A DNA stretch of 64,000 nucleotides from Candidatus Beckwithbacteria bacterium (GTDB lineage Bacteria; Patescibacteriota; Microgenomatia; UBA1400; CG1-02-47-37): contig JAPLVF010000011.1 in assembly GCA_026397255.1 (NCBI GenBank), positions 7,589 through 71,588 of the forward strand, in the 5' to 3' direction. How positions within the stretch are numbered: the first letter of the stretch is position 1; each line of letters starts with the position of its first letter. Of this stretch, positions 3,639-14,758 are shown piece by piece. A program made the translations under genes and the position numbers. The notes beneath the pieces were generated by a model. That model saw only the letters and a list, made by a program, of their open reading frames with translations. It searched no databases and was not told the origin of the DNA.

Positions 3639-3711
3639 TCCGCGGTAGCTCAATTGGCAGAGCGCCTCTCTGTTAAAGAGGATGTTACTGGTCCGAGTCC
3701 AGTCCGCGGAG
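3639..3711 (+). tRNA. tRNA-Asn (anticodon GTT)
   Basis: Hand-folded cloverleaf. Acceptor TCCGCGG/CCGCGGA. D-stem GCTC/GAGC. Anticodon stem CCTCT/AGAGG with loop CTGTTAA (anticodon GTT). T-stem ACTGG/CCAGT with loop TCCGAGT. Discriminator G; CCA not encoded. 73 nt. Confidence 0.85.
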
Positions 3712-5181
3712 CAAGGTAGTCGTTATTCTGACAGTCTTAGCCTCTATTAGACTTTGGAATAGCGGTGTATAGATTACTTTCGCAATCTTTTTATCCCTCA
3801 CTTCTATCCGCTCAAAGAACATTGATAAGTAATGGCGTTTAGCTTCAAAATTCGCATTAGCAAAAGTTTCTTTGATATTGTTTACCAGGTCAAGAATTGC
3901 GATAGTGGCATCAACATCAAACCCTCCCTGATTTTCGATAGTAGCCAACTCACTCTCTCGATTTTGTAAATCAATTGTTAGCTCACTATGCTTTCGTTTA
4001 AATGTTTCCCTGTCTACTATTTGGTCAACAAGGGCATCCTCAAGGACTTTACGTTTTGCCACAATTGCCTTGATTGCATTTTGGACGCCCTGAATTTCTG
4101 TTTCCTTTGTCTCCCTAGAACGATTTAGCAGTGCTTTGGCCTTATCAATTATTTGTTGAGTAAATTCTTTACTAAACTTTATTTTCCCCAGTTGTTCAAC
4201 TACTTGGGCCTCTAAACTCCCAAGAGGGGTGTAGTGATGACAGCCTCGTAAAGCATTGCCATGATAATAAGCAGATTTTTTGGTTCTATTCCAATCGCCG
4301 CACAAACGAGTATTGTCTTTCTGACAGAAAGCAAAACCATTTAAAAGCCACTGATATTTGCGTCTGCGACAGGCATTTTGATTATGTAGGGTAGATATTC
4401 TTTTGCAGGTATCAAATATTTCAGGAGTTGTGAGTGGTTTGTGATTGCCTTTAATAATTTCTCCGTTATACCGAAACATTCCAAGATAAAAAGGATTTTT
4501 TAAAAGGCTGTATAACACACTTCTGTATACTCGCTTATTATTCTTAGAACGCAAGCCTTTCTCAAACATAAGGTCAACTAAAGTATCGACAGGATAATTA
4601 CCAGTTGAATACAGTCGGAACATTTCGGTTATAAATGGTCCCTTTATTAGATCAATTTTAACCACCTTGTGAGGTTTTTCTTCTGTGCCCAAGTTCACAT
4701 TAAGATAACCTAATGGCGCCCAACCCGGGAAATCACCTAGTTCGCACTTCTTCTCTAAACTCTTTTTAACTTTCCTTCCAAGTAAACGACTATAAAAAGC
4801 ATTTGTACCCGCAAGAATAGTTTCAAAGAATTGCCCTTCGGGCGTATCGTTTAGTGGTTGATTGATAGCAATTAGCTGAGTGTTGCCTTTCCGTAGTTCA
4901 TTTTTAATAAAAAAGTGGTCAACTTCATTTCGGGCAATTCTATCGGTATCGACCACAAGTGCTGCATCAATTTTTTCTTCTTGGCATTGAATTATCATGT
5001 CTTCCAGTCCATCTCTTCCAACGGTCTTAGTGCCTGTCTTGCCCCCATCTTGATATACACCTACGACCTCATAACCTTTTTGTCTTGCCCATTTAATACA
5101 TGACTCTTTTTGAACTTCAGGCGATAAACCCTTCATCTGTTCCTCACTGCTGACCCTAGAATATATCACTGCTTTTTTCAT
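3685..5181 (-). CDS. large serine recombinase (phage-integrase type; resolvase catalytic domain + recombinase domain + zinc ribbon)
   Basis: N-terminal catalytic motif 'AVIYSRVSSEEQ' and 'DRIARN'; C-terminal Cys-rich region 'CGDWNRTKKSAYYHGNALRGCHHY'; coiled-coil tail; the last ~9 codons overlap the 3' end of tRNA-Asn. Confidence 0.85.
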   Translation of the reverse strand: MKKAVIYSRVSSEEQMKGLSPEVQKESCIKWARQKGYEVVGVYQDGGKTGTKTVGRDGLEDMIIQCQEEKIDAALVVDTDRIARNEVDHFFIKNELRKGNTQLIAINQPLNDTPEGQFFETILAGTNAFYSRLLGRKVKKSLEKKCELGDFPGWAPLGYLNVNLGTEEKPHKVVKIDLIKGPFITEMFRLYSTGNYPVDTLVDLMFEKGLRSKNNKRVYRSVLYSLLKNPFYLGMFRYNGEIIKGNHKPLTTPEIFDTCKRISTLHNQNACRRRKYQWLLNGFAFCQKDNTRLCGDWNRTKKSAYYHGNALRGCHHYTPLGSLEAQVVEQLGKIKFSKEFTQQIIDKAKALLNRSRETKETEIQGVQNAIKAIVAKRKVLEDALVDQIVDRETFKRKHSELTIDLQNRESELATIENQGGFDVDATIAILDLVNNIKETFANANFEAKRHYLSMFFERIEVRDKKIAKVIYTPLFQSLIEAKTVRITTTLLRGLDSDQ

Positions 5182-5459
5182 ACTTGTACCCCCTTTGGAT
5201 TGACTATAAATGCCTTAGCACAAATAATCTGTCTAATCCTTTTTATGACTGGATAGATACCAGGAATAAAACGATAGCCTAGCTCGGACAGCCTTACTTC
5301 AGCTATCCGAGTGGCTAACAATTCAAGATTTTTTTCTAGATTGTTTTTCATAGTTTTAATAAATAAACACCAATTTAACATCATCATTCTTAAACAAATT
5401 TTCAATATCAGAGAAACTCGCTGTATCTCTCGACAATCTATCGGGACCGGAGCAAACAA
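5178..5459 (-). CDS. hypothetical ORF overlapping the resolvase-like fragment; possibly part of a frameshifted gene
   Basis: ORF only; overlaps 5356-5459 in a different frame. Confidence 0.15.
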   Translation of the reverse strand: MFAPVPIDCREIQRVSLILKICLRMMMLNWCLFIKTMKNNLEKNLELLATRIAEVRLSELGYRFIPGIYPVIKRIRQIICAKAFIVNPKGVQV

Positions 5460-5700
5460 TAGATGTGATTTTTTTGTTTGCCGCTAATGTATACAGCATG
5501 TTTAATGCTGGTCGGTTAATATCTAATCCTGACTGTGCGGGGTCAAAGAGTACTCCTGAAAGTTCGATATTATTCTTTTTACAGTAATCCTTAATTAACT
5601 GTTCCTGCTTCTCAATTGTGTTAAAGACTGTATTTTTAACATCAACTGCGGTTCTTGCATAACCGATTGCAGTTTTTGTTTTTTTATTCATATTTATCAC
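5356..5700 (-). pseudogene. degenerate serine-recombinase catalytic-domain-like ORF (nucleophile Ser replaced)
   Basis: 'AIGYARTAVDVKN' aligns to the 'YxRVSTxxQ' motif with Ser->Ala at the nucleophile position; 'DRLSRD' conserved; only 114 aa and no DNA-binding domain. Confidence 0.35.
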
Positions 5701-5717
5701 CTCCTAACTAAATTTAG

Positions 5718-5768
5718 ACAACAAAAAAGACGTAGCTCTCGGCACGAAGGCCGTCTGAAACTACGTCT
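5718..5768 (-). terminator. rho-independent terminator on the minus strand, downstream of the 5864-6100 gene
   Basis: Compound hairpin AGACGTAG...(inner CGGC/GCCG)...CTACGTCT, followed on the minus strand by CTTTTTTGTTGTC. Confidence 0.5.
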
Positions 5769-5863
5769 AAAACTAAAAAACTTTTACTTAAAACTGTCAG
5801 TATTTTGAACTGATGTAATAACAGCATATATGTAAATAATCCCGATGTCAAGCCCTAATCTTA

Positions 5864-6100
5864 TTAATTATTTAATAATTTAGGGTTATTTTTATTAACT
5901 TTTTTATTATTTTTAACCTCAATTGCTACTGGTGCAGTATCAAGATTTTTCTGTTTTTTTATTTCGTGTCGTTTGGCTTTTCTTTTTGCCTGATATTTAG
6001 TCATTAGCGCTTTGCCTTTCTCAGACTGCATAAATCTTTTGCGGGCAGCAATTCCTTTTTCTGAGTGGGCGTATTTTTTTTGTGTTTCGGTCCATGACAT
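5864..6100 (-). CDS. small highly basic (K/R-rich) hypothetical protein
   Basis: 78-aa ORF; ~30% Lys/Arg; terminator downstream; no recognised domain. Confidence 0.35.
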   Translation of the reverse strand: MSWTETQKKYAHSEKGIAARKRFMQSEKGKALMTKYQAKRKAKRHEIKKQKNLDTAPVAIEVKNNKKVNKNNPKLLNN

Positions 6101-6324
6101 AGATATTCACCTCCTTTATTTATTAACTTTTAAATAATTATCACGACAAATTATCAATATGGCACGAGGGGTTTAGCGGTATTAACTGGGTAAAACGGGG
6201 GGTAGTATCTTTGGGGATTAAGAAGATAAGAACATGATTGTATGAGAGAGGAATGGTTCGGGTTATTTATTGATATCCGTCTTTATGAACTAACATATAT
6301 TGCCTCACAACCGAGGGAAAATAC

Positions 6325-6353
6325 TTGTAAAAAAGCGGTTATTTTTGTATGAT
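6325..6353 (+). promoter_or_regulatory. sigma-70-like promoter for the excisionase-like/helicase operon
   Basis: TTGTAA (-35), 17-nt spacer, TATGAT (-10) about 30 nt upstream of the ATG at 6382. Confidence 0.4.
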
Positions 6354-6381
6354 ATTGGTATCTATTAGTAGGAAAACGAAT

Positions 6382-6567
6382 ATGTCAGACATTCCAGAGT
6401 TAATAACTCTCAAAGAAGCCAGTAAAATATTAAAGGTACATCCAAACACACTTAGGTTGTGGGATAAAAATGGGATATTACCTGCGGTGCGTATTGGTGA
6501 GAAGAAAGTAAGAAGATATAGGAAAATAGATATAGAAAATTTTATTAAGAAAAATGAACGAAAATAA
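6382..6567 (+). CDS. excisionase/AlpA/MerR-type HTH DNA-binding protein
   Basis: 'ITLKEASKILKVHPNTLRLWDKNGILPAVRIGEKKVRRYRKIDIENFI' matches the excisionase-family HTH pattern; its stop overlaps the start of the 1531-aa gene. Confidence 0.6.
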   Translation: MSDIPELITLKEASKILKVHPNTLRLWDKNGILPAVRIGEKKVRRYRKIDIENFIKKNERK

Positions 6568-9500
6568 TATTCAAACTGATAACAGTGAGGACAATGTTAA
6601 GCTCTCTAAGAGCCTTACTTTTATTCGCGAAGTGGCTAAATATTTTATGGATTTCCTGGAAACAGACTTCCATAAAAGAAAAAATCCAAAACGAAGTGTT
6701 CAATTAAGGAGTGGAAATAATCTGCTTATTGGTTTAAACCTCAACAAGTATCCCACTTTTGCTAATCTGGTTTGGAAAGCGATTAACCACTCTTTCGATA
6801 AAAGTGTCTTAAATGGGATACCAAAAGGGGTTTATCGCACCAATATTCCTCAAAATCTCCTTGATTTAATAGAATTATCTCTCAATAAAATAACAAATAA
6901 GCAAATTGCTCAAATACTAGAGCAAGTCACAGAAGAGATTGAAAAATCATCTACTCTATATAAAAAAGAATATGATCAAGCCCTAAGTACCGCCCTTGAA
7001 GCAGCTTCAAAAATTATCCAAACAAATTTAGTCTTACCGTTTATTAGTTATTTAGAAAAGCCGCTAGAGAATTTGAATTTGGGAGATGAAGACAGCACTT
7101 ACTTAATGGAAGAGGAACTTACCTCTGTTCTCACCTCCTTGCTTGAAAATAAAATTTCAGAAGTAATTAAGCTTCTATTGGCAAAAGAAAAGGTTGATAT
7201 CTCCAAACAACTAAAGGATGTTTTTGACATCGATAACGCAAAAGCTAATATTTTGTCATTTTTTGAAAGTTTCCGTGTCGGAGATTTATTTGCGGAAGTA
7301 TATGAGATGGAGCGGAATCGTACCATTTTAGATAAACAGGAATTCTATCTTTATTTTTGCGATATTACTTTTGAAAAGGCAAAGTATCCAATTTTCTATA
7401 TTCCGTTTACTGTAGAAAAACAAAATGATCTATTAAATATAGAGTTTGATTCTCAAGTCTATATAAACAAGAAAGCACTTGAATACATTTCACAGCAATA
7501 TAATCAAGAAAAAGATAAAAAGGGAAATCTAAAAACCATTGCTGAAAGAATTATTTATCTAGCACAACATCAAAATGATTTCAGAGAATTAATAAGCGAA
7601 ATATTGAATGAGATTACTAACTTTTTTGAATTAGACAACAATATTAATATAGACAAAACAGATCCGCAGGTTGCAAAGAGTTTCCTTGTTAGGGCGTCTA
7701 ATTCATGCTACATAACCTTATTCGATAAATCTGATGAGGCGCTGGTAAACGATTACGAAGAAATTTTAAAGCTTCTTTCTTCCGAGGATAGTATTTTAGC
7801 TGGCGCTTTTAACAAGTTAATTGATGACTTTATTCAGAAAGACCCAAAAAGTTTCAATATAGAAATTCAAGAAGATTGGAATGATCAAGAAGTCCAGGAT
7901 AAACTTGTATTCCAAAGCCCAATTCCTTTAAATGAAGAGCAGCTTCAAATACTATCTGCTATAAAGCAAGATGATTGTAAATATATTATTGTGCAAGGTC
8001 CTCCTGGAACAGGTAAAAGCCATACAATAACCGCAGTTGTTTTCAACGCAATACTTAAAAACCAATCCGTTTTAGTTCTATCGGACAAGAAAGAGGCTCT
8101 TGATGTTGTCGAGGATAAGATAACGGAAACGATGAATAAAGTCAGGACTGATGATAATTTTCAAAACCCTGTTTTAAGATTGGGGAAAATAGGTAATGCT
8201 TATGCAAAGATACTAAGTCCAATATCAATTAAAGCTATTACAAATAATTTTCTTGCAGTAAAGAAAAATTATAAGGATTTAGAACAGAATATTGATAAAT
8301 CTCAAAAGTCATTAAAAGAGGACATAGAAGCCGAAATATTAACCTATAAGGATATCGACATAAAAGAGATTCACGAATACTTTGATCTTGAAAGCTACCA
8401 TACAAACAATGGCTTTCCGATTGATTTAGAAGAAGTAGTTAAACAGCAGGAGTCTGCGATAGATCTTGAAGAATTCCGGAAGATATTTTTAACACTGAAA
8501 GCTAAATTAGTAATTGATACTGATGAAAATGAAAAGACGCTAAAAATATTTGAATTATTGGATTTTTCTCTTGATGACTTTAAAGATACATCTGATTTTC
8601 AAAAATATTTACAGTTTTTGAACTCTCTTTCTTCCTCTATCACTAAACTGCGTGAAGTATATGGGGATAACTTAAATTCAATTCTAGAGTTCGAAAACTT
8701 CGATTCCTCTAGATTAAAAGTTCTAAATTCCTCAATACAAAAATATAAAGAGGAGAAAAACTGGCTATTCGGCTATCTATTCAAAAAAGATCAGATAGAG
8801 CGGCTAAATACTGAATTTAGAAAAAATTTTAAATATTCATCGTCAATTGAACCACAACAAAACTTAAAGAAGCTTGACGAAGCGGCAAACATTTATAATT
8901 ACGCAGATGAAATATTTAGCAAACTTGACAACAAATTTATTAGTAAACTGGACTACTTACACTTTTTTCATCAAGTCATAAAAGATGAAAGTGTTTTGTC
9001 ATTTTTAAATGACTTAATAGCTTTAAATGATGATATAAAATATCTCGGCTCCAATATAAATAAGTATCCACTTACGGCTAAAAAACTGAAAGTTAATCTT
9101 TCGTCGTTTAAAACTCTTACTGATAATAAGTTCACAAAAATATCAGATTTGGATTTTGATAAATTAATCAGGTATTTGAGTCTAAACCAAAAGATTGAAA
9201 AGGATTTTCAAGACATTCCTGCTCTTAACTACGACAGTCAAAAGAAGGATATTGAGAGCTTACTTACTGTGCAGATGACTCACGTCATGGACAACAGGCT
9301 CATTGGGTTTTGGACTCAACATCAGGCTACTGCGATTGCTTTAAAGAAAATAATTCAAAGCAAAATGAAGTTTCCTCAAAGTGAATTTCTAAAGCTTAAG
9401 GAGGCTTTCCCTTGCATTTTAGCTGGAATTAGAGATTATGCCGAGTACATCCCTCTCGAGCCAGAAATATTTGATCTAGTAATTATTGATGAGGCTTCAC

Positions 9501-11149
9501 AAGTAAGCGTTGCTCAGGCTTTTCCTGCTCTATTAAGAGCTAAAAAGGTATTAATCCTTGGAGACAAGAAACAATTTAGTAACGTTAAGACTGCCCAAGC
9601 TCGATCAGATGAAAATAGAAAATATTTAAGTCAATTAAAAGATTGTTTTGTTAAATGTATTTCTGATGAAGGTACAAAATTAGTAAAGCTCGAAAAATTT
9701 AACATTAAAACCTCTATTCTTGAGTTCTTTGAATTTATTAGCAACTACAACACGCAACTCTTAAAGTATTTTAGAGGCTACAAAGAGATTATTTCCTATT
9801 CGAATAAATATTTTTATCAGGACAGTCTTCAAGTAATGAAAATTCGAGGGAAGTCGATTGATGAAGTACTGAAATTTTCGTTTATCAAACATGATGGAAA
9901 AACGGAGTTGTTGCAAAATTCTAATGAATTGGAAGTCAAATATATTATTTCGGAATTGAAAAAACTAAAGGAATCAGGATCTAGCCAAAGCGTTGGTATT
10001 ATTACGCCTCATACTAACCAACAGAAATTATTAGTTGAAAAAATTAGCCAATTACCCGAAAAGGATTACTTTTACGATACTTTTAAATTAAAGATAATGA
10101 CTTTTGATACCTGCCAGGGTGAAGAGAGAGACATTATATTTTATTCAATGGTTGCGACTGAAGAAGACGATCATCTTTGGGGCGTGTTCATCAAAGATTT
10201 AAATGATGTTGATGTTGAAGAAGAAGGAAGAATAAAAGCCCAACGATTAAATGTTGGCTTAAGTCGTGCTAAAGAATGTATGCATTTTGTGCTAAGTAAA
10301 CCTATTGAAAACTATACCGGCTCAATAGGCGAGGCTTTGAGACACTATTATTTTGTCCTTAATGAAGCCAAAAAAGAGCATAGTGTTACCGAAGTTGATA
10401 AAAAATCCAAGATGGAGCCTGAAGTTATGAATTGGTTTTACCAGACGGATTTTTGGACAAAACATAAAGATAGTGTTGAGTTTATTCCCCAGTTTGAGCT
10501 TGGAAAATATTTGAAGCAACTTGATAGAACCTACAATCATCCAAAATATAAGGTAGATTTCTTACTTGTATATAAAGATGAAACACATAAAGAGCATAAG
10601 ATCGTAATGGAATATGATGGTTTTAAGGAGCACTTTAAGGATGTAGATGAGATAAATGAATATAACTATCAAGACTATTATTCTGAGTCAGATATTTATA
10701 GAGAAAAAGTATTAGAAAGTTACGGCTACAGATTTTTAAGAGTAAATAAATTTAACATTGGTAGTAACCCCATTGCCACTCTTAACGAGAGAATAACAAG
10801 TTTAGTTAAAAATGGTGCAGGGAAAAACAATGTTATTAGTCATATACACGAGACAGTAGAAAATTTAGAAAATGGTTCGATGAAGGAGTGTCCAAAATGT
10901 AAGGAGGTTAGAGAATACAAAGATTTTAGGGACCCCGATTTGACAACCGGATATGGACGATTTTGCATGCATTGTAAGGGTTATACGCTAGTTGATAAGC
11001 CCGTCGAAGAAGTTAATGACGTTGTAACTTCTGGTGATAAGAATTGTCCCAAGTGCGGTTCAAGTATGATTTTAAGAAATGGGAGATATGGCCGTTTTTA
11101 TGGATGTTCCCGTTTCCCTTATTGTAGAGGAACTAGACAATATATCTAA
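6554..11149 (+). CDS. 1531-aa multidomain protein: DUF4011-like N-terminus + SF1 (Upf1/AAA_11-AAA_12-type) helicase + DUF559/Vsr-like endonuclease + two topoisomerase-type C4 zinc ribbons (Hhe-like)
   Basis: Walker A 'VQGPPGTGKSHTITAVV'; motif II 'DLVIIDEASQV'; 'MTFDTCQGEERDIIFYSMV'; 'LNVGLSRAKECMHFV'. DUF559-like 'KVDFLLVYKDETHKEHKIVMEYDGFKEHF...YGYRFLRVNKF'. zf-C4_Topoisom-like 'CPKCGSSMILRNGRYGRFYGCSRFPYCRGT'. N-terminal 'YPIFYIPFTVEKQNDLLNIEFDSQVYINKKALEYI' resembles the DUF4011 core. Confidence 0.75.
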   Translation: MNENNIQTDNSEDNVKLSKSLTFIREVAKYFMDFLETDFHKRKNPKRSVQLRSGNNLLIGLNLNKYPTFANLVWKAINHSFDKSVLNGIPKGVYRTNIPQNLLDLIELSLNKITNKQIAQILEQVTEEIEKSSTLYKKEYDQALSTALEAASKIIQTNLVLPFISYLEKPLENLNLGDEDSTYLMEEELTSVLTSLLENKISEVIKLLLAKEKVDISKQLKDVFDIDNAKANILSFFESFRVGDLFAEVYEMERNRTILDKQEFYLYFCDITFEKAKYPIFYIPFTVEKQNDLLNIEFDSQVYINKKALEYISQQYNQEKDKKGNLKTIAERIIYLAQHQNDFRELISEILNEITNFFELDNNINIDKTDPQVAKSFLVRASNSCYITLFDKSDEALVNDYEEILKLLSSEDSILAGAFNKLIDDFIQKDPKSFNIEIQEDWNDQEVQDKLVFQSPIPLNEEQLQILSAIKQDDCKYIIVQGPPGTGKSHTITAVVFNAILKNQSVLVLSDKKEALDVVEDKITETMNKVRTDDNFQNPVLRLGKIGNAYAKILSPISIKAITNNFLAVKKNYKDLEQNIDKSQKSLKEDIEAEILTYKDIDIKEIHEYFDLESYHTNNGFPIDLEEVVKQQESAIDLEEFRKIFLTLKAKLVIDTDENEKTLKIFELLDFSLDDFKDTSDFQKYLQFLNSLSSSITKLREVYGDNLNSILEFENFDSSRLKVLNSSIQKYKEEKNWLFGYLFKKDQIERLNTEFRKNFKYSSSIEPQQNLKKLDEAANIYNYADEIFSKLDNKFISKLDYLHFFHQVIKDESVLSFLNDLIALNDDIKYLGSNINKYPLTAKKLKVNLSSFKTLTDNKFTKISDLDFDKLIRYLSLNQKIEKDFQDIPALNYDSQKKDIESLLTVQMTHVMDNRLIGFWTQHQATAIALKKIIQSKMKFPQSEFLKLKEAFPCILAGIRDYAEYIPLEPEIFDLVIIDEASQVSVAQAFPALLRAKKVLILGDKKQFSNVKTAQARSDENRKYLSQLKDCFVKCISDEGTKLVKLEKFNIKTSILEFFEFISNYNTQLLKYFRGYKEIISYSNKYFYQDSLQVMKIRGKSIDEVLKFSFIKHDGKTELLQNSNELEVKYIISELKKLKESGSSQSVGIITPHTNQQKLLVEKISQLPEKDYFYDTFKLKIMTFDTCQGEERDIIFYSMVATEEDDHLWGVFIKDLNDVDVEEEGRIKAQRLNVGLSRAKECMHFVLSKPIENYTGSIGEALRHYYFVLNEAKKEHSVTEVDKKSKMEPEVMNWFYQTDFWTKHKDSVEFIPQFELGKYLKQLDRTYNHPKYKVDFLLVYKDETHKEHKIVMEYDGFKEHFKDVDEINEYNYQDYYSESDIYREKVLESYGYRFLRVNKFNIGSNPIATLNERITSLVKNGAGKNNVISHIHETVENLENGSMKECPKCKEVREYKDFRDPDLTTGYGRFCMHCKGYTLVDKPVEEVNDVVTSGDKNCPKCGSSMILRNGRYGRFYGCSRFPYCRGTRQYI

Positions 11150-11157
11150 TTAAAAAT

Positions 11158-12408
11158 ATGAAAAAAATTAAAGTAACAATCCAGGACGAAAACACACTAA
11201 AACTATTAGAAGATGCCCAAAGGGGTGACATAATCGATCTCAAATCGATACACGAAACGGATATAGATAAAACTACAATTGATATCCTAATCAAATCAAT
11301 CAAAACTGATGAGTTTAATTCACAGCTAGAGGAAGCAAAACGCAATATCGAAAAAGAGAAGGGTCTTGAGGCTCAACTCAAAGAAAAAGACATTATTAAT
11401 AGAGCGAAAGAAGCGCTTGCAAAGAAAGATCAGGAGATTGTCAATTTAAACACTAAAGTCGAAAACATTGCCAAACAGGTTGAATCGGATGCAAAAATTG
11501 AAGCCTTAGAAGAGAAAAAGTCTTTGGAAGATGGTTATCAGCAAAAATTGACTGAAAAAGAAGCTGAAATTCAAGAGATTAAACATCAAAAAGAACTAAA
11601 TGAGCAAAAATACCAGGATCAACTCAAAGCGAGCGAAACTGCTTTAGTCTCTCTAAAAGAAATGCGGTCTAGAATGAGTACCAAAATGATTGGTGAATCA
11701 TTAGAGGTTCACTGTGAGAACGAGTTTAATAGGCTTCGCCCGTTTGCTTTTCCTAAGGCTCAATTCGGAAAAGATAATCAACTTTCAACTTCGGGGTCCA
11801 AAGGAGACTATATCTATCGAGAACTTGACGATGACGGTAATGAAATTTTAACCATTATGTTTGAGATGAAAAATGAGGAAGATGAAACATCTACTAAACA
11901 TAAAAATAAAGACTTTTTCAGGGAATTAGATAAAGATCGACGAGAAAAAAAATGTGAATATGCAGTACTTGTCAGCTTATTGGAAAAAGAAAACGAATAT
12001 TATGACGATATTGTTACAGTGCCTGAATATCCATGCATGTTTGCCATAAGGCCTCAACATTTTATTACAATAATTGGGTTTTTACGCCAAGGTAATTTGA
12101 AATCTCAAGAATTGCGACTGACTATTCAAAATCTTAAAAATCAAAACATCGATGTAACCAATTTTGAATCCAATATAAATGCATTTAAGGATGCTTTTGC
12201 TAGAAATTATAACTTAGCTGCTGATCAATTTAGTAAAGCAATTGAAGAAATCGATAAGACTATTGATCATCTCAATAAGGTTAAAGAAAATTTGCTCAAA
12301 TCAGACAATAACCTGAGATTAGCTAACAACAAAGCCACAGAACTTACAGTAAAAAGATTGACAGCTAACAGTCCAAGTGTTGCAAGGGCTTTTGCGGAAA
12401 AAGTCTAA
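11158..12408 (+). CDS. DUF2130-like coiled-coil protein with a C-terminal PD-(D/E)xK-like putative nuclease core
   Basis: Long E/K-rich coiled coil, then 'SKGDYIYRELDDDGNEILTIMFEMKNEED...EYAVLVSLLE' (D...ExK pattern); 9 nt after the helicase stop. Confidence 0.5.
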   Translation: MKKIKVTIQDENTLKLLEDAQRGDIIDLKSIHETDIDKTTIDILIKSIKTDEFNSQLEEAKRNIEKEKGLEAQLKEKDIINRAKEALAKKDQEIVNLNTKVENIAKQVESDAKIEALEEKKSLEDGYQQKLTEKEAEIQEIKHQKELNEQKYQDQLKASETALVSLKEMRSRMSTKMIGESLEVHCENEFNRLRPFAFPKAQFGKDNQLSTSGSKGDYIYRELDDDGNEILTIMFEMKNEEDETSTKHKNKDFFRELDKDRREKKCEYAVLVSLLEKENEYYDDIVTVPEYPCMFAIRPQHFITIIGFLRQGNLKSQELRLTIQNLKNQNIDVTNFESNINAFKDAFARNYNLAADQFSKAIEEIDKTIDHLNKVKENLLKSDNNLRLANNKATELTVKRLTANSPSVARAFAEKV

Positions 12409-12484
12409 ATATGGATTACTTTAATGTTTTAGCAACGAAGATTAAATGAAATTAAGCTTTTAGAGAAATGGTTATTGGAATTTT

Positions 12485-13030
12485 ATGAGAGTAGCTATAC
12501 TAGAAAAAATATCTCGAGAACTCAGTAGTGGAATTGATACCGAACCGAAGACTCTATATATACTTGCTGAGATTAGAAAGTACATTGACGGTTACGATGA
12601 AGCGGAAAAAGAAAATTATCCCAACCTATACTTCTATTGCGATTGGGTTTTACACATTCAAATGGATCGAACTCCAACAAAAACACTTTTAAACAGATTC
12701 GAATCCCTTTTTTCAGGTATTACCGATCTGAAAGAAATATCAAGACTTTTTAAAGAACGAGAAAGAAATTTCTACCTGTTAGTAGATTTAAAAGAAGAAC
12801 TACGAAATTTCCTAGTTAAAAACGGTTTATCATTGGATCTAATTGAAAATAATGGTAAATGGTTTAAGTTCAAAAAGCTGTTAACGGAAATACTCCTGGA
12901 TTGTCCATTGGTGAATACAGGAGGTAGAGTAGGCAGGTTCGCTTATGAAAAAGGAGACGATGCGCAAACAAGGTTCAGGATTAAAATAGATAGGCTTGGA
13001 TCCTTCAAAATTACTCTGAAAGAAAAATAG
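12485..13030 (+). CDS. hypothetical protein (181 aa), last gene of the island operon
   Basis: ORF only; same strand, 76 nt after the DUF2130-like gene; no known motif. Confidence 0.35.
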   Translation: MRVAILEKISRELSSGIDTEPKTLYILAEIRKYIDGYDEAEKENYPNLYFYCDWVLHIQMDRTPTKTLLNRFESLFSGITDLKEISRLFKERERNFYLLVDLKEELRNFLVKNGLSLDLIENNGKWFKFKKLLTEILLDCPLVNTGGRVGRFAYEKGDDAQTRFRIKIDRLGSFKITLKEK

Positions 13031-13222
13031 AAAGGCATTACATTTTTAACCTTCTCTGAAAGGCGGGGAAACTTTCGATTTCGTTACTCTGAACTTAACC
13101 TGTTGTCCTATTACCTTTTTATCTTCTTCGATTAATTCCCCTCTTGATACTTCTACTCTTAATGAAGCATAGAAGCCTAAAGCACGACCCCCAGTAGTTA
13201 TATTTGGGTTTCCATATTGCCA

Positions 13223-14299
13223 TTATTTAACAATAATTCCGTCAACTAAGAAGTTGTTATTTTCTGTTTCAAGGCTAAATCTTTCCATTGTGCGTGTTCG
13301 TTGTTTTATATACTTAGTTAATATCTTACTTTCCTTTATAAGGTATTTTTTAGTTTCAAAGACTCTTTTTGGTTCTATAAAATTACTCGATCGATATTCA
13401 ACAGGTACTTTATATCGCATTACAGGATGAATATATTCCCCACAAATATTAAAGAATTTCCTTGTTTCTTTTGTTCCAAGGGTTATTATGAGCTCGGTAT
13501 CGCGTGCTATTGTTGTTTTTGTATTAATATCGTATCTCTGTTTTAGGAAAGTTCTTAATATCTCAATGGAGGGCTCATTAAAGCAATTTGTACAGATTTT
13601 AATAGCTTTTCTGTCACCATCAACAAAAGATCCATCGTCTTGATACCAAATAGCTAGAACAAGGGGGGAAATATCTATGTCTTTGGGGACTTTATGTTTC
13701 TTTGTTCCTTGATAGAAATCAATATATCTTTGTCTAAACGTAGTGCTTAAAAATGTTTCTAGATATAAACCTCCCCGTTTGTGCTTTCCCATTGTTTTAA
13801 CTTTAAAATAACTAGATTTCCACAGTAAATAGTCGTCTTGTTCTTTACAATGGGTTTCCCTATATTGAAATTTTTCATTGCCTATTCTTCTTAAACATCC
13901 ATCACCAAGTAATCCACCTAAAATAATTTCTTTTTGGATATCGCTCGGTTGCCATTCTTTAATCAATAAAAGGATACTATCACCGACATTTATCTCTCCA
14001 ACTGTTTTATAACCATTTGGTGTTAATATTTGTTGTTCTGGAGTACAGGCGAATCTTGCTCTTCCATTTCCTTCGCACTTAGTTGAATAAAGTTGAATGA
14101 AATATTCTGCTTTACTATTATGAATCCAGTTTAATATCGGTTTTGGCTCAATACTGTTTGTATCTGTGTTTAACGTTAGTATATTCGCTTTAACCCTGTT
14201 ATTTACGAGATAACCAATCTTCTTTGTTGTTCTGTCTTCTAGAACGACTTTGGCATCATAGTGAAAATATGCGCATTTTTCATTATTTAGATTATTCAT
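13223..14299 (-). CDS. free-standing Hint-domain + LAGLIDADG homing endonuclease (intein-like, no exteins)
   Basis: N-terminal 'KCAYFHYDAKVVL' and 'FACTPEQQILTPNGYKTVGEINVGDSILL' (Hint blocks A/B-like); two LAGLIDADG-type motifs 'ILGGLLGDGCLRR' and 'LAIWYQDDGSF'; only 8 residues precede the Cys and the ORF ends ...DGIIVK*. Confidence 0.6.
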   Translation of the reverse strand: MNNLNNEKCAYFHYDAKVVLEDRTTKKIGYLVNNRVKANILTLNTDTNSIEPKPILNWIHNSKAEYFIQLYSTKCEGNGRARFACTPEQQILTPNGYKTVGEINVGDSILLLIKEWQPSDIQKEIILGGLLGDGCLRRIGNEKFQYRETHCKEQDDYLLWKSSYFKVKTMGKHKRGGLYLETFLSTTFRQRYIDFYQGTKKHKVPKDIDISPLVLAIWYQDDGSFVDGDRKAIKICTNCFNEPSIEILRTFLKQRYDINTKTTIARDTELIITLGTKETRKFFNICGEYIHPVMRYKVPVEYRSSNFIEPKRVFETKKYLIKESKILTKYIKQRTRTMERFSLETENNNFLVDGIIVK

Positions 14300-14758
14300 A
14301 TAGGAAACCGTAAAAATCGGTTCCCTATGAATGCCAATTCAGAGAGATACTAGAGAGGTTTTTAACCTCCTAAGCTATCCCATGGGTTTAGGATTATAGG
14401 TAGCGCATTTTGAAGAGAAGTAGTTTTAGAGGATATATTTATCCGGTTTTTACTTTACTTCTGCACAAAGCCGTAATTGATAACTACTTCCACGAGGGAT
14501 ACTGAAGCTGAAACTGTGTCTATTTACTTAATACTGGTACAGGTATTTTCCAAAATCTTCCATTGTTTGCCTCCACTACGGTATAATTAGTTTGCATTTT
14601 TAATAAGTCTTGTAATACTTGTAACTGAACCTTAACTCGTGCTAACGCTTCTCTAGGGAATAGCTGATACAGAACGTTCGGCGGGCTTTGGAGCCAACCA
14701 TTTTTAGCCTAAAACTTTTAACTTGCAAAAACATTATTTTTGGAGTAGATTGCGGCTA

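Follow-up and report, generated by a model that had tools for sequence, protein, structure and literature searches.

The locus examined here raises two linked questions: what is the protein encoded by a 416-codon open reading frame (ORF) at positions 11158..12408, forward strand, of a 64,000-nucleotide stretch of Candidatus Beckwithbacteria DNA (the whole stretch being referred to here as the window), and does the position of this gene directly behind that of a large superfamily 1 (SF1) helicase mean that the two products work together? The original prediction, made from the DNA letters and their ORF translations, regarded the protein as DUF2130-like, proposed a restriction-endonuclease fold for it and combined it with the helicase into a functional module. 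The reading that we favor as a whole, with moderate confidence, retains the first two elements and drops the third: the gene would encode a DUF2130 nuclease of the PD-(D/E)xK type that serves as an accessory island or defense gene and not as a dedicated partner of the helicase.

The gene starts with ATG and its 416-residue translation is exactly the one quoted in that prediction; no competing ORF of at least 80 residues is found at the gene on either strand. The sole Pfam match of the protein is to DUF2130 (PF09903; COG4487), with an E-value of 1.9e-75 and a score of 253.9 bits compared to a gathering cut-off of 26.7, and residues 146-403 align with profile positions 2-254 of 255, that is, with the whole domain, so that the proposed family membership is confirmed. 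The protein is 100% identical to a 'DUF2130 domain-containing protein' from a Candidatus Beckwithbacteria (Patescibacteria) metagenome-assembled genome (P0001), falls in the same length class as the rest of the family and possesses all of the family-invariant residues (K176, G179, E180, L182, E183, K205, D206, G216, D217, M234, F235, M237, N250, D260, R261, E267, R298 and P299). The C-terminal motifs that had been described as conserved-looking are indeed among the most conserved columns in an alignment of 151 diverse relatives, which were taken from clusters at 50% identity and are 38-72% identical to the query. The window gene is a genuine member of the uncharacterized DUF2130 family, which comprises about 2,000 clusters at 50% identity and is listed in the PD-(D/E)XK phosphodiesterase superfamily with its function given as 'unknown' (Steczkiewicz et al. 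2012, PMC3424549); the family and its place in this superfamily have accordingly been known since 2012.

Structural models were generated with AlphaFold2 from an alignment of 58 sequences (identities 46-94%), both for the full-length protein, with a mean predicted local distance difference test score (pLDDT) of 75, and for residues 170-416 alone, with a mean pLDDT of 80. Four parts can be delineated in the protein:

11158..11268, forward strand: N-terminal module, residues 1-37, with low-confidence short beta strands at residues 5-27 in the model
11269..11682, forward strand: charged helical rod, residues ~38-175, modeled as one continuous helix over residues 51-175 with pLDDT 76-91
11683..12054, forward strand: predicted PD-(D/E)xK nuclease core, residues ~176-299, delineated from the models, conservation and fold matches
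12052..12405, forward strand: C-terminal helical hairpin and tail, residues ~299-416; both models place helices at 299-329 and 336-395

The core adopts an αβββαβ topology in both models, mostly at pLDDT 80-90, its elements following one another in the order helix 182-197, strand 201-206, strand 217-223, strand 229-238, helix 247-263, strand 268-273 and strand 294-297. The polar residues that are invariant or nearly so among the relatives are E180, E183, K205, D206, D217, E236, K238, N250, D260, R261, K264, E267 and E276. Four of these are candidate catalytic residues by their placement in the model, where E183 lies on core helix 1, D217 (in 'KGD') opens strand β2 and E236-M-K238 closes strand β3; in samples of 77-151 diverse relatives, E183 and D217 never vary and the conservation of E236 and K238 is 95% or higher. 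An acidic residue on helix 1, an aspartate at β2 and an ExK at β3 make up the canonical PD-(D/E)xK arrangement. The motif originally put forward, 'DDDG...IMFEMK', was therefore right in its ExK part (E236-M-K238), but the DDDG part (223-225) belongs to a variable, unconserved β2-β3 turn, and the aspartate in question is D217.

Searches of the PDB by sequence, and with a profile built from 77 sequences, yielded coiled-coil noise only and were discarded. When the full-length model was compared to known structures using Foldseek, the best E-value was 0.05, and all of the top 15 matches were restriction-fold nucleases, the matches including DdmD, MspJI, Can2, SPARDA, AspBHI, MUS81, BamHI and PaqCI. 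The full-length search is diluted by the rod and the domain was therefore modeled alone; the PDB entry that then matched best was DNA-bound BstEII (E 2.1e-3, probability 1.00, 153 aligned columns), followed by AspBHI, BspD6I, Can2, BamHI and DdmD, with restriction-fold nucleases accounting for seven of the top ten. These fold matches are individually weak but jointly consistent with the modeled topology, the conserved residues and the published superfamily assignment, and the window protein is very probably a restriction-endonuclease-fold DNA nuclease mounted on a long helical rod. The fold proposed at the outset thus holds up in the models, on the combined evidence of the αβββαβ core, the conserved site, the restriction-fold matches and the published classification (PMC3424549): the structure prediction that had been suggested as a check gives a nuclease-like fold, and Foldseek returns mainly restriction endonucleases.

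Outside the core, the rod (residues 38-175) consists of 41% E, K and Q and contains no proline, and its hydrophobic residues display no heptad (3.5-residue) periodicity above shuffled controls. Because of this absence of periodicity a coiled coil is not demonstrated for the rod, which could equally be a single charged helix. The coiled coil of ~170 residues that had been proposed was hence correct as to an E/K/Q-rich helix, but too long (the helix spans about 125-138 residues) and, as to the coiling itself, not borne out by a heptad signal. Rod length is highly variable in the family, the nuclease core starting anywhere from residue ~114 to ~385. The conserved positions of the C-terminal hairpin and tail are D332, F336, I365, D366, L379, A389 and L401. 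The N-terminal module of the window protein is a cysteine-free variant ('KVxIxDENTLxLLEDAxxGDxIDL'), whereas about 80% of the family starts with 'M..IKCPxCG..F', which places a single CxxC directly before the rod; a CxxC within the first 60 residues occurs in none of 120 members of the clade of proteins at least 80% identical to the window protein, compared to 121 of 150 and 119 of 120 in samples of the wider family. One may speculate that, in the majority type, two subunits could jointly bind one zinc ion through their N-terminal CxxC motifs, by analogy with the Rad50/RloC hook.

The second question concerns the gene upstream:

6554..11149, forward strand: SF1 helicase, 1531 aa, with Pfam AAA_11/AAA_12, a weak restriction-endonuclease-like patch and a C-terminal Top1-type zinc ribbon

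A spacer of 8 nt, without any Shine-Dalgarno-like sequence, separates the end of the helicase gene at 11149 from the DUF2130 start; no terminator between the two genes was detected in a scan, and promoter-like sites are fewer than in shuffled sequence, neither of which is informative. A tight linkage of 9 nt had been taken as a sign of a functional module. The close spacing stands, but the gap is 8 nt, and it is uninformative because, in the window, adjacent genes on one strand are 10 nt apart or less in 24 of 39 pairs (median gap -4).

Partnership was assessed in both directions. The forward test covered 90 DUF2130 loci with flanks of up to 10 kb, 80 of them from GTDB species representatives belonging to many phyla. 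A tblastn search of these loci with the window helicase recovered only the window's own strain (L009, L010) and a 23%-identical protein in L050, that is, one distant relative within 10 kb among ~80 independent DUF2130 loci. Clustering of the neighbors revealed no family that adjoins DUF2130 in more than 9 of 82 loci, and the 138 immediate neighbors scanned contained 160 Pfam families, none of them in more than six proteins. The reverse test started from 80 metagenomic loci (L093-L172) encoding relatives of the helicase at 56-88% identity, 62 of which could be evaluated because the helicase gene is intact at its 3' end and is followed by 300 nt or more of sequence. DUF2130 follows the helicase in none of the 62; L161 alone has it upstream, in divergent orientation. 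The closest relative of the helicase (L093, 88% identity) has no DUF2130 within the 6 kb flank on either side, and the window helicase is absent from the other 12 genomic contexts that were sampled for the window's DUF2130 clade. The adjacency of the two genes is seen in the window's strain only, and a dedicated module is not supported. The functional module inferred from close linkage must accordingly be given up, as the co-occurrence statistics suggested along with it find no co-occurrence of DUF2130 with this helicase family in either direction.

The distribution of DUF2130 is that of an accessory gene, mobile or island-borne. Only 3 of 5,426 complete Escherichia coli genomes carry it, each time inside a defense island, and it is encoded on 71 of 72,556 plasmids, in none of 50,697 phage records and on 22 of 2.9 million viral contigs. 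Beckwithbacteria, Collierbacteria and other Patescibacteria contribute more than 120 clusters at 90% identity to the clade of the window protein (at least 80% identity), of which 13 independent genomic contexts were compared. In five of the 13 (L177, L179, L181, L182, L183), DUF2130 follows a Type I hsdR gene after a gap of 10-17 nt, the five HsdR proteins being 88-93% identical to each other. In L001, the upstream gene is GmrSD/HNH and a 47-nt relic of an hsdR 3' end (87% identity, E 7e-10) remains directly before DUF2130, for which reason the hsdR-DUF2130 order looks ancestral in the clade. A corresponding relic in the last codons of the window helicase was considered and rejected: 'NISN*' occurs in another frame, there is no relic in the window, and the helicase C-terminus, '...PYCRGTRQYI*', lies inside its own zinc ribbon. 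In L034 (Yanofskybacteria), the same HsdR lineage (80-82% identity) is followed, at the same position, by a DUF2130 that is 45% identical and of the other N-terminal type. Among the remaining contexts, L176 has a Type III Res neighbor, L008 a Type ISP enzyme with Pif1 upstream and a bona fide Gabija system downstream, L006, L178 and L180 a small ORF of 76-96 aa, L003 an ABC transporter, and the window its SF1 helicase.

Some further observations were made on these loci. The clade proteins (P0002-P0120) share 80-94% identity with the window protein in spite of entirely different genomic surroundings; this similarity may reflect either recent horizontal spread or unusually strong constraint. In every locus seen here that has the Patescibacteria HsdR lineage (80-93% identical), DUF2130 comes next. 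In three contexts, a LexA-like repressor gene (LexA_DNA_bind and Peptidase_S24) is found within a few kb of DUF2130, at 12484-13125 of L001, 9020-9616 of L006 and 1292-1900 of L176, which could point to SOS-type regulation or merely to a repressor borne by the element.

Outside the clade, DUF2130 recurs beside two other types of enzyme. In 12 loci from Proteobacteria, a gene for an OLD-family ATP-dependent nuclease (626 aa) is followed after 2 nt by DUF2130 in a two-gene cassette, which lies beside a Type III restriction-modification (R-M) system in E. coli H5 and on a Citrobacter plasmid, and after a Type I R-M system in a tRNA-Gly island of E. coli ET245. In four loci, on Lactococcus plasmids and in L028, L030 and L043, DUF2130 adjoins a TrlF-family ATPase, an arrangement associated with Firmicutes. 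Coordinates refer to the respective loci:

L092, 4761-8053: OLD-DUF2130 cassette
L174, 10118-13410: OLD-DUF2130 cassette
L175, 10118-13413: OLD-DUF2130 cassette
L046, L073, L185, L186, L191, L194 and L202: further OLD-DUF2130 cassettes
L091 (Lactococcus pCV56A), 6764-10634: TrlF-DUF2130 pair

TrlF is paired with TrlG in the temperature-restriction locus of Photorhabdus (PMC7554251), and by analogy DUF2130 might hold the effector position beside the TrlF-family PHP/AAA-like ATPase.

In the window itself, no homologue of hsd, Res, GmrSD, OLD or TrlF is present. Instead, the DUF2130 and helicase genes are located in a stretch with a GC content of 33.9% (from ~3.6 to 14.4 kb), compared to 42.5% in the rest of the window, together with the following features:

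3639..14400, no strand: low-GC integrative island of ~11 kb, between rpoD and a class I aldolase gene; right boundary approximate
3639-3712, forward strand: tRNA-Asn at the left island edge, the only tRNA in the window
3685-5181, reverse strand: serine recombinase, 498 aa, identified by Pfam and as a PHROG integrase (E 1e-78)
5356-5700, reverse strand: resolvase fragment (Pfam/PHROG annotation)
~6382-6567, forward strand: HTH_17/MerR-like small ORF (Pfam/PHROG annotation)
12485-13030, forward strand: ORF of 181 aa directly downstream of DUF2130, with no Pfam, NCBIfam, PADLOC or PHROG match
13223-14299, reverse strand: free-standing LAGLIDADG/intein-like ORF of 358 aa (LAGLIDADG_2, E 1.4e-22)

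The 3' end of the serine recombinase gene overlaps the tRNA-Asn by 28 nt, and this tRNA at the island edge is the only Rfam family matched in the scan. Direct or inverted repeats resembling att sites were sought at both edges of the island without a convincing result; serine recombinases need no flanking repeats. This low-GC stretch constitutes an integrative island whose cargo is mosaic. Apart from distant serine recombinases (14 of 80 helicase loci), its other genes do not accompany DUF2130 or the helicase elsewhere, the 181-aa ORF has no homologue outside the window's strain among ~180 related loci, and few genes are common to the window and related contigs. In some hosts, the GC content of the DUF2130 gene is 3-6 points below that of its flanks, which its K/E-rich composition could account for. 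The 358-aa ORF at the right edge also has weak intein matches (Intein_splicing, E 4e-5; intein_Nterm, E 3e-4) and looks like an intein-derived or intein-like homing endonuclease without a host protein.

The helicase is highly conserved, at 56-88% identity across the 80 metagenomic loci, 14 of which have the distant serine recombinases just mentioned nearby. No family matches its first ~450 residues, and Hhe, ProA, MkoA and PDC-S37 are matched only in part and at scores well under the curated cut-offs. The helicase gives the impression of a defense candidate in its own right, mobile and made up of a single gene.

Under the reading that we favor, the window protein would combine a short N-terminal module, a charged rod of ~125 residues, a PD-(D/E)xK core and a C-terminal helical hairpin, with E183, D217 and E236-x-K238 as the probable metal-binding and catalytic set. 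Its most likely activity, judging from the fold and the conserved residues, would be Mg2+-dependent cleavage of DNA, and a role in restricting foreign DNA is suggested because its relatives neighbor hsdR and other restriction-type enzymes, OLD and TrlF. The gene, normally placed behind hsdR in its clade, would have been brought behind an unrelated SF1 helicase-nuclease by recombination within the island, both genes being cargo of the ~11-kb low-GC element integrated at tRNA-Asn, and its product may act alone or as a second nuclease beside whichever ATP-driven enzyme happens to adjoin it.

The alternatives differ primarily in how much meaning they attach to that adjoining enzyme. That the SF1 helicase and DUF2130 constitute a dedicated, co-evolving two-gene helicase-nuclease module is very unlikely. 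Their common strand, the short spacer without a ribosome-binding signal, which may allow coupled translation, and their residence within one island would all fit such a module, as would the large SF1-type helicase upstream of DUF2130 in L050; however, short gaps are usual in this genome, the other 12 clade contexts lack this helicase, ~80 independent DUF2130 loci provide that single case besides the window's strain, and close helicase relatives are never followed by DUF2130 (0/62), even the 88%-identical one in L093 being without it. A broader proposal, which we regard as rather doubtful, is that DUF2130 teams up with, or is restrained by, any adjacent ATP-dependent DNA enzyme (HsdR, OLD, TrlF and, here, the SF1 helicase), in one version as a back-up effector that is freed when the neighboring restriction enzyme is inhibited, as in PrrC and EcoprrI. 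The HsdR-DUF2130 cassette is kept while genes further upstream vary, two strongly diverged DUF2130 variants occupy one position behind a single HsdR lineage (L034), the OLD-DUF2130 pair recurs intact, as a mobile unit, in a Type III R-M island, in a Type I R-M island and on a plasmid, TrlF and DUF2130 co-occur on Lactococcus plasmids and in three further loci, and PrrC offers the precedent of a nuclease tied genetically and functionally to a Type I R-M enzyme (PMC2610378). The L034 swap and the mobile OLD-DUF2130 cassette favor a real coupling in those lineages. On the other hand, most DUF2130 genes across phyla have no such neighbor, so any partner would be facultative, and defense genes cluster in islands without interacting; because many DUF2130 loci are solitary, a partner is not obligatory. 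Tentatively, DUF2130 could be an unrecognized, partner-swapping nuclease module of restriction and defense systems, co-inherited with HsdR in Patescibacteria, with OLD in Proteobacteria and with TrlF-like ATPases in Firmicutes, that in the window was recruited behind the SF1 helicase-nuclease; coupled to an ATP-driven enzyme, it would serve as an additional or back-up DNA nuclease.

A different view would make DUF2130 an RmuC-like housekeeping factor of recombination or repair, whose presence in an island is incidental; we consider this improbable. RmuC (PF02646; E. coli b3832) likewise places a PD-(D/E)xK domain after a helical N-terminal part and appears in the same superfamily listing, DUF2130 is very highly conserved across phyla with housekeeping neighbors at many loci, and LexA-like genes lie near it in the three contexts named above. 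Nevertheless, no sequence or profile relationship between the two families is detectable: the Pfam RmuC model does not match the window protein even at E 10, and an hhalign comparison of the DUF2130 profile with the single sequence of E. coli RmuC gives a probability of 0.1% and an E-value of 0.48, the sole aligned patch, which might be counted in favor of a relationship, placing DUF2130 'KGDYIFRE' opposite RmuC 'QPDVIVRL'. The link to RmuC suggested in the original prediction is not borne out, and membership in that family is rejected, RmuC being retained as an architectural analogy only. Moreover, rmuC is annotated separately on the E. coli K-12 chromosome, DUF2130 is found in so few E. coli genomes and always in a defense island, and the window gene itself resides in a foreign low-GC island.

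Several results also weigh against the nuclease and defense reading that we prefer. No NCBIfam or PHROG model matches the window DUF2130, and PADLOC-DB v2 yields a match at the coiled-coil level only (PDC-M01B, E 0.0016), with no model of a system component satisfied; enterobacterial DUF2130 proteins are likewise without a PADLOC or NCBIfam match. In the searched literature that mentions DUF2130 there is no functional report, and neither nuclease activity nor a phage phenotype is described for any member. No Foldseek match reaches E 0.001 with either model. For a defense gene, DUF2130 is unusually conserved, with 45-50% identity between phyla and 80% or more among many Patescibacteria clusters. 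HsdR or Res is present within 10 kb in only 3 of the 80 GTDB loci, most cross-phylum loci have housekeeping neighbors, and in 4 of the 13 clade contexts a restriction-type enzyme is missing from the examined flank (L003, L178, L180) or is on the opposite strand only (L006). Finally, cooperation of the helicase and DUF2130 in the window's strain alone is possible and compatible with the reverse test, although nothing supports it.

DUF2130, a large family repeatedly attached to restriction-type enzymes, can be compared with several kinds of nuclease. From the majority of PF09903 proteins, ~80% of which carry the N-terminal 'CPxCG', the window clade differs by its absence. The restriction endonuclease domains of Type II and Type IV enzymes (BstEII, BamHI, AspBHI, MspJI, BspD6I) and the nuclease domains of the defense proteins Can2, Cap4 and DdmD, which are the best structural matches, have the same αβββαβ core and catalytic arrangement as those predicted for DUF2130; sequence identity to these nucleases is 8-17%, with a best E-value of 2e-3, and they possess neither the charged rod nor the C-terminal hairpin.

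The nearest functional analogy for the clade is provided by PrrC and RloC (PMC2610378, PMC3458546), accessory nucleases whose genes are linked to Type I R-M loci, even though their domains differ. Like them, DUF2130 relatives are encoded in or beside an hsd locus (L177, L179, L181, L182, L183, L034), and the long coiled coil of RloC with its CxxC zinc hook resembles the single N-terminal CxxC before the rod in most DUF2130 proteins. However, PrrC and RloC consist of an ABC ATPase fused to an anticodon RNase, whereas DUF2130 has no ATPase and a predicted DNA-nuclease fold, and the window gene is not beside hsd genes. The OLD systems offer the other comparison. They comprise Class 2 Gabija (GajA and GajB), the retron-linked Class 3 and Class 4 PARIS (PMC10568477, PMC6755086); the proteobacterial DUF2130 genes, 2 nt downstream of the OLD ATPase-nuclease and moving together with it, occupy the place of the UvrD-like helicase, the retron or AriB, while the window has no OLD gene. 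None of the OLD Classes 1-4, as described in PMC10568477, has this OLD-DUF2130 arrangement. Both the HsdR-DUF2130 and the OLD-DUF2130 cassettes are directly clonable, the latter occurring in E. coli and Citrobacter, and if a restriction activity proved true, the DUF2130 family would gain a function and the OLD systems possibly a new context class. Although it lies outside the window, the OLD-DUF2130 cassette is the most promising lead to emerge from this comparison.

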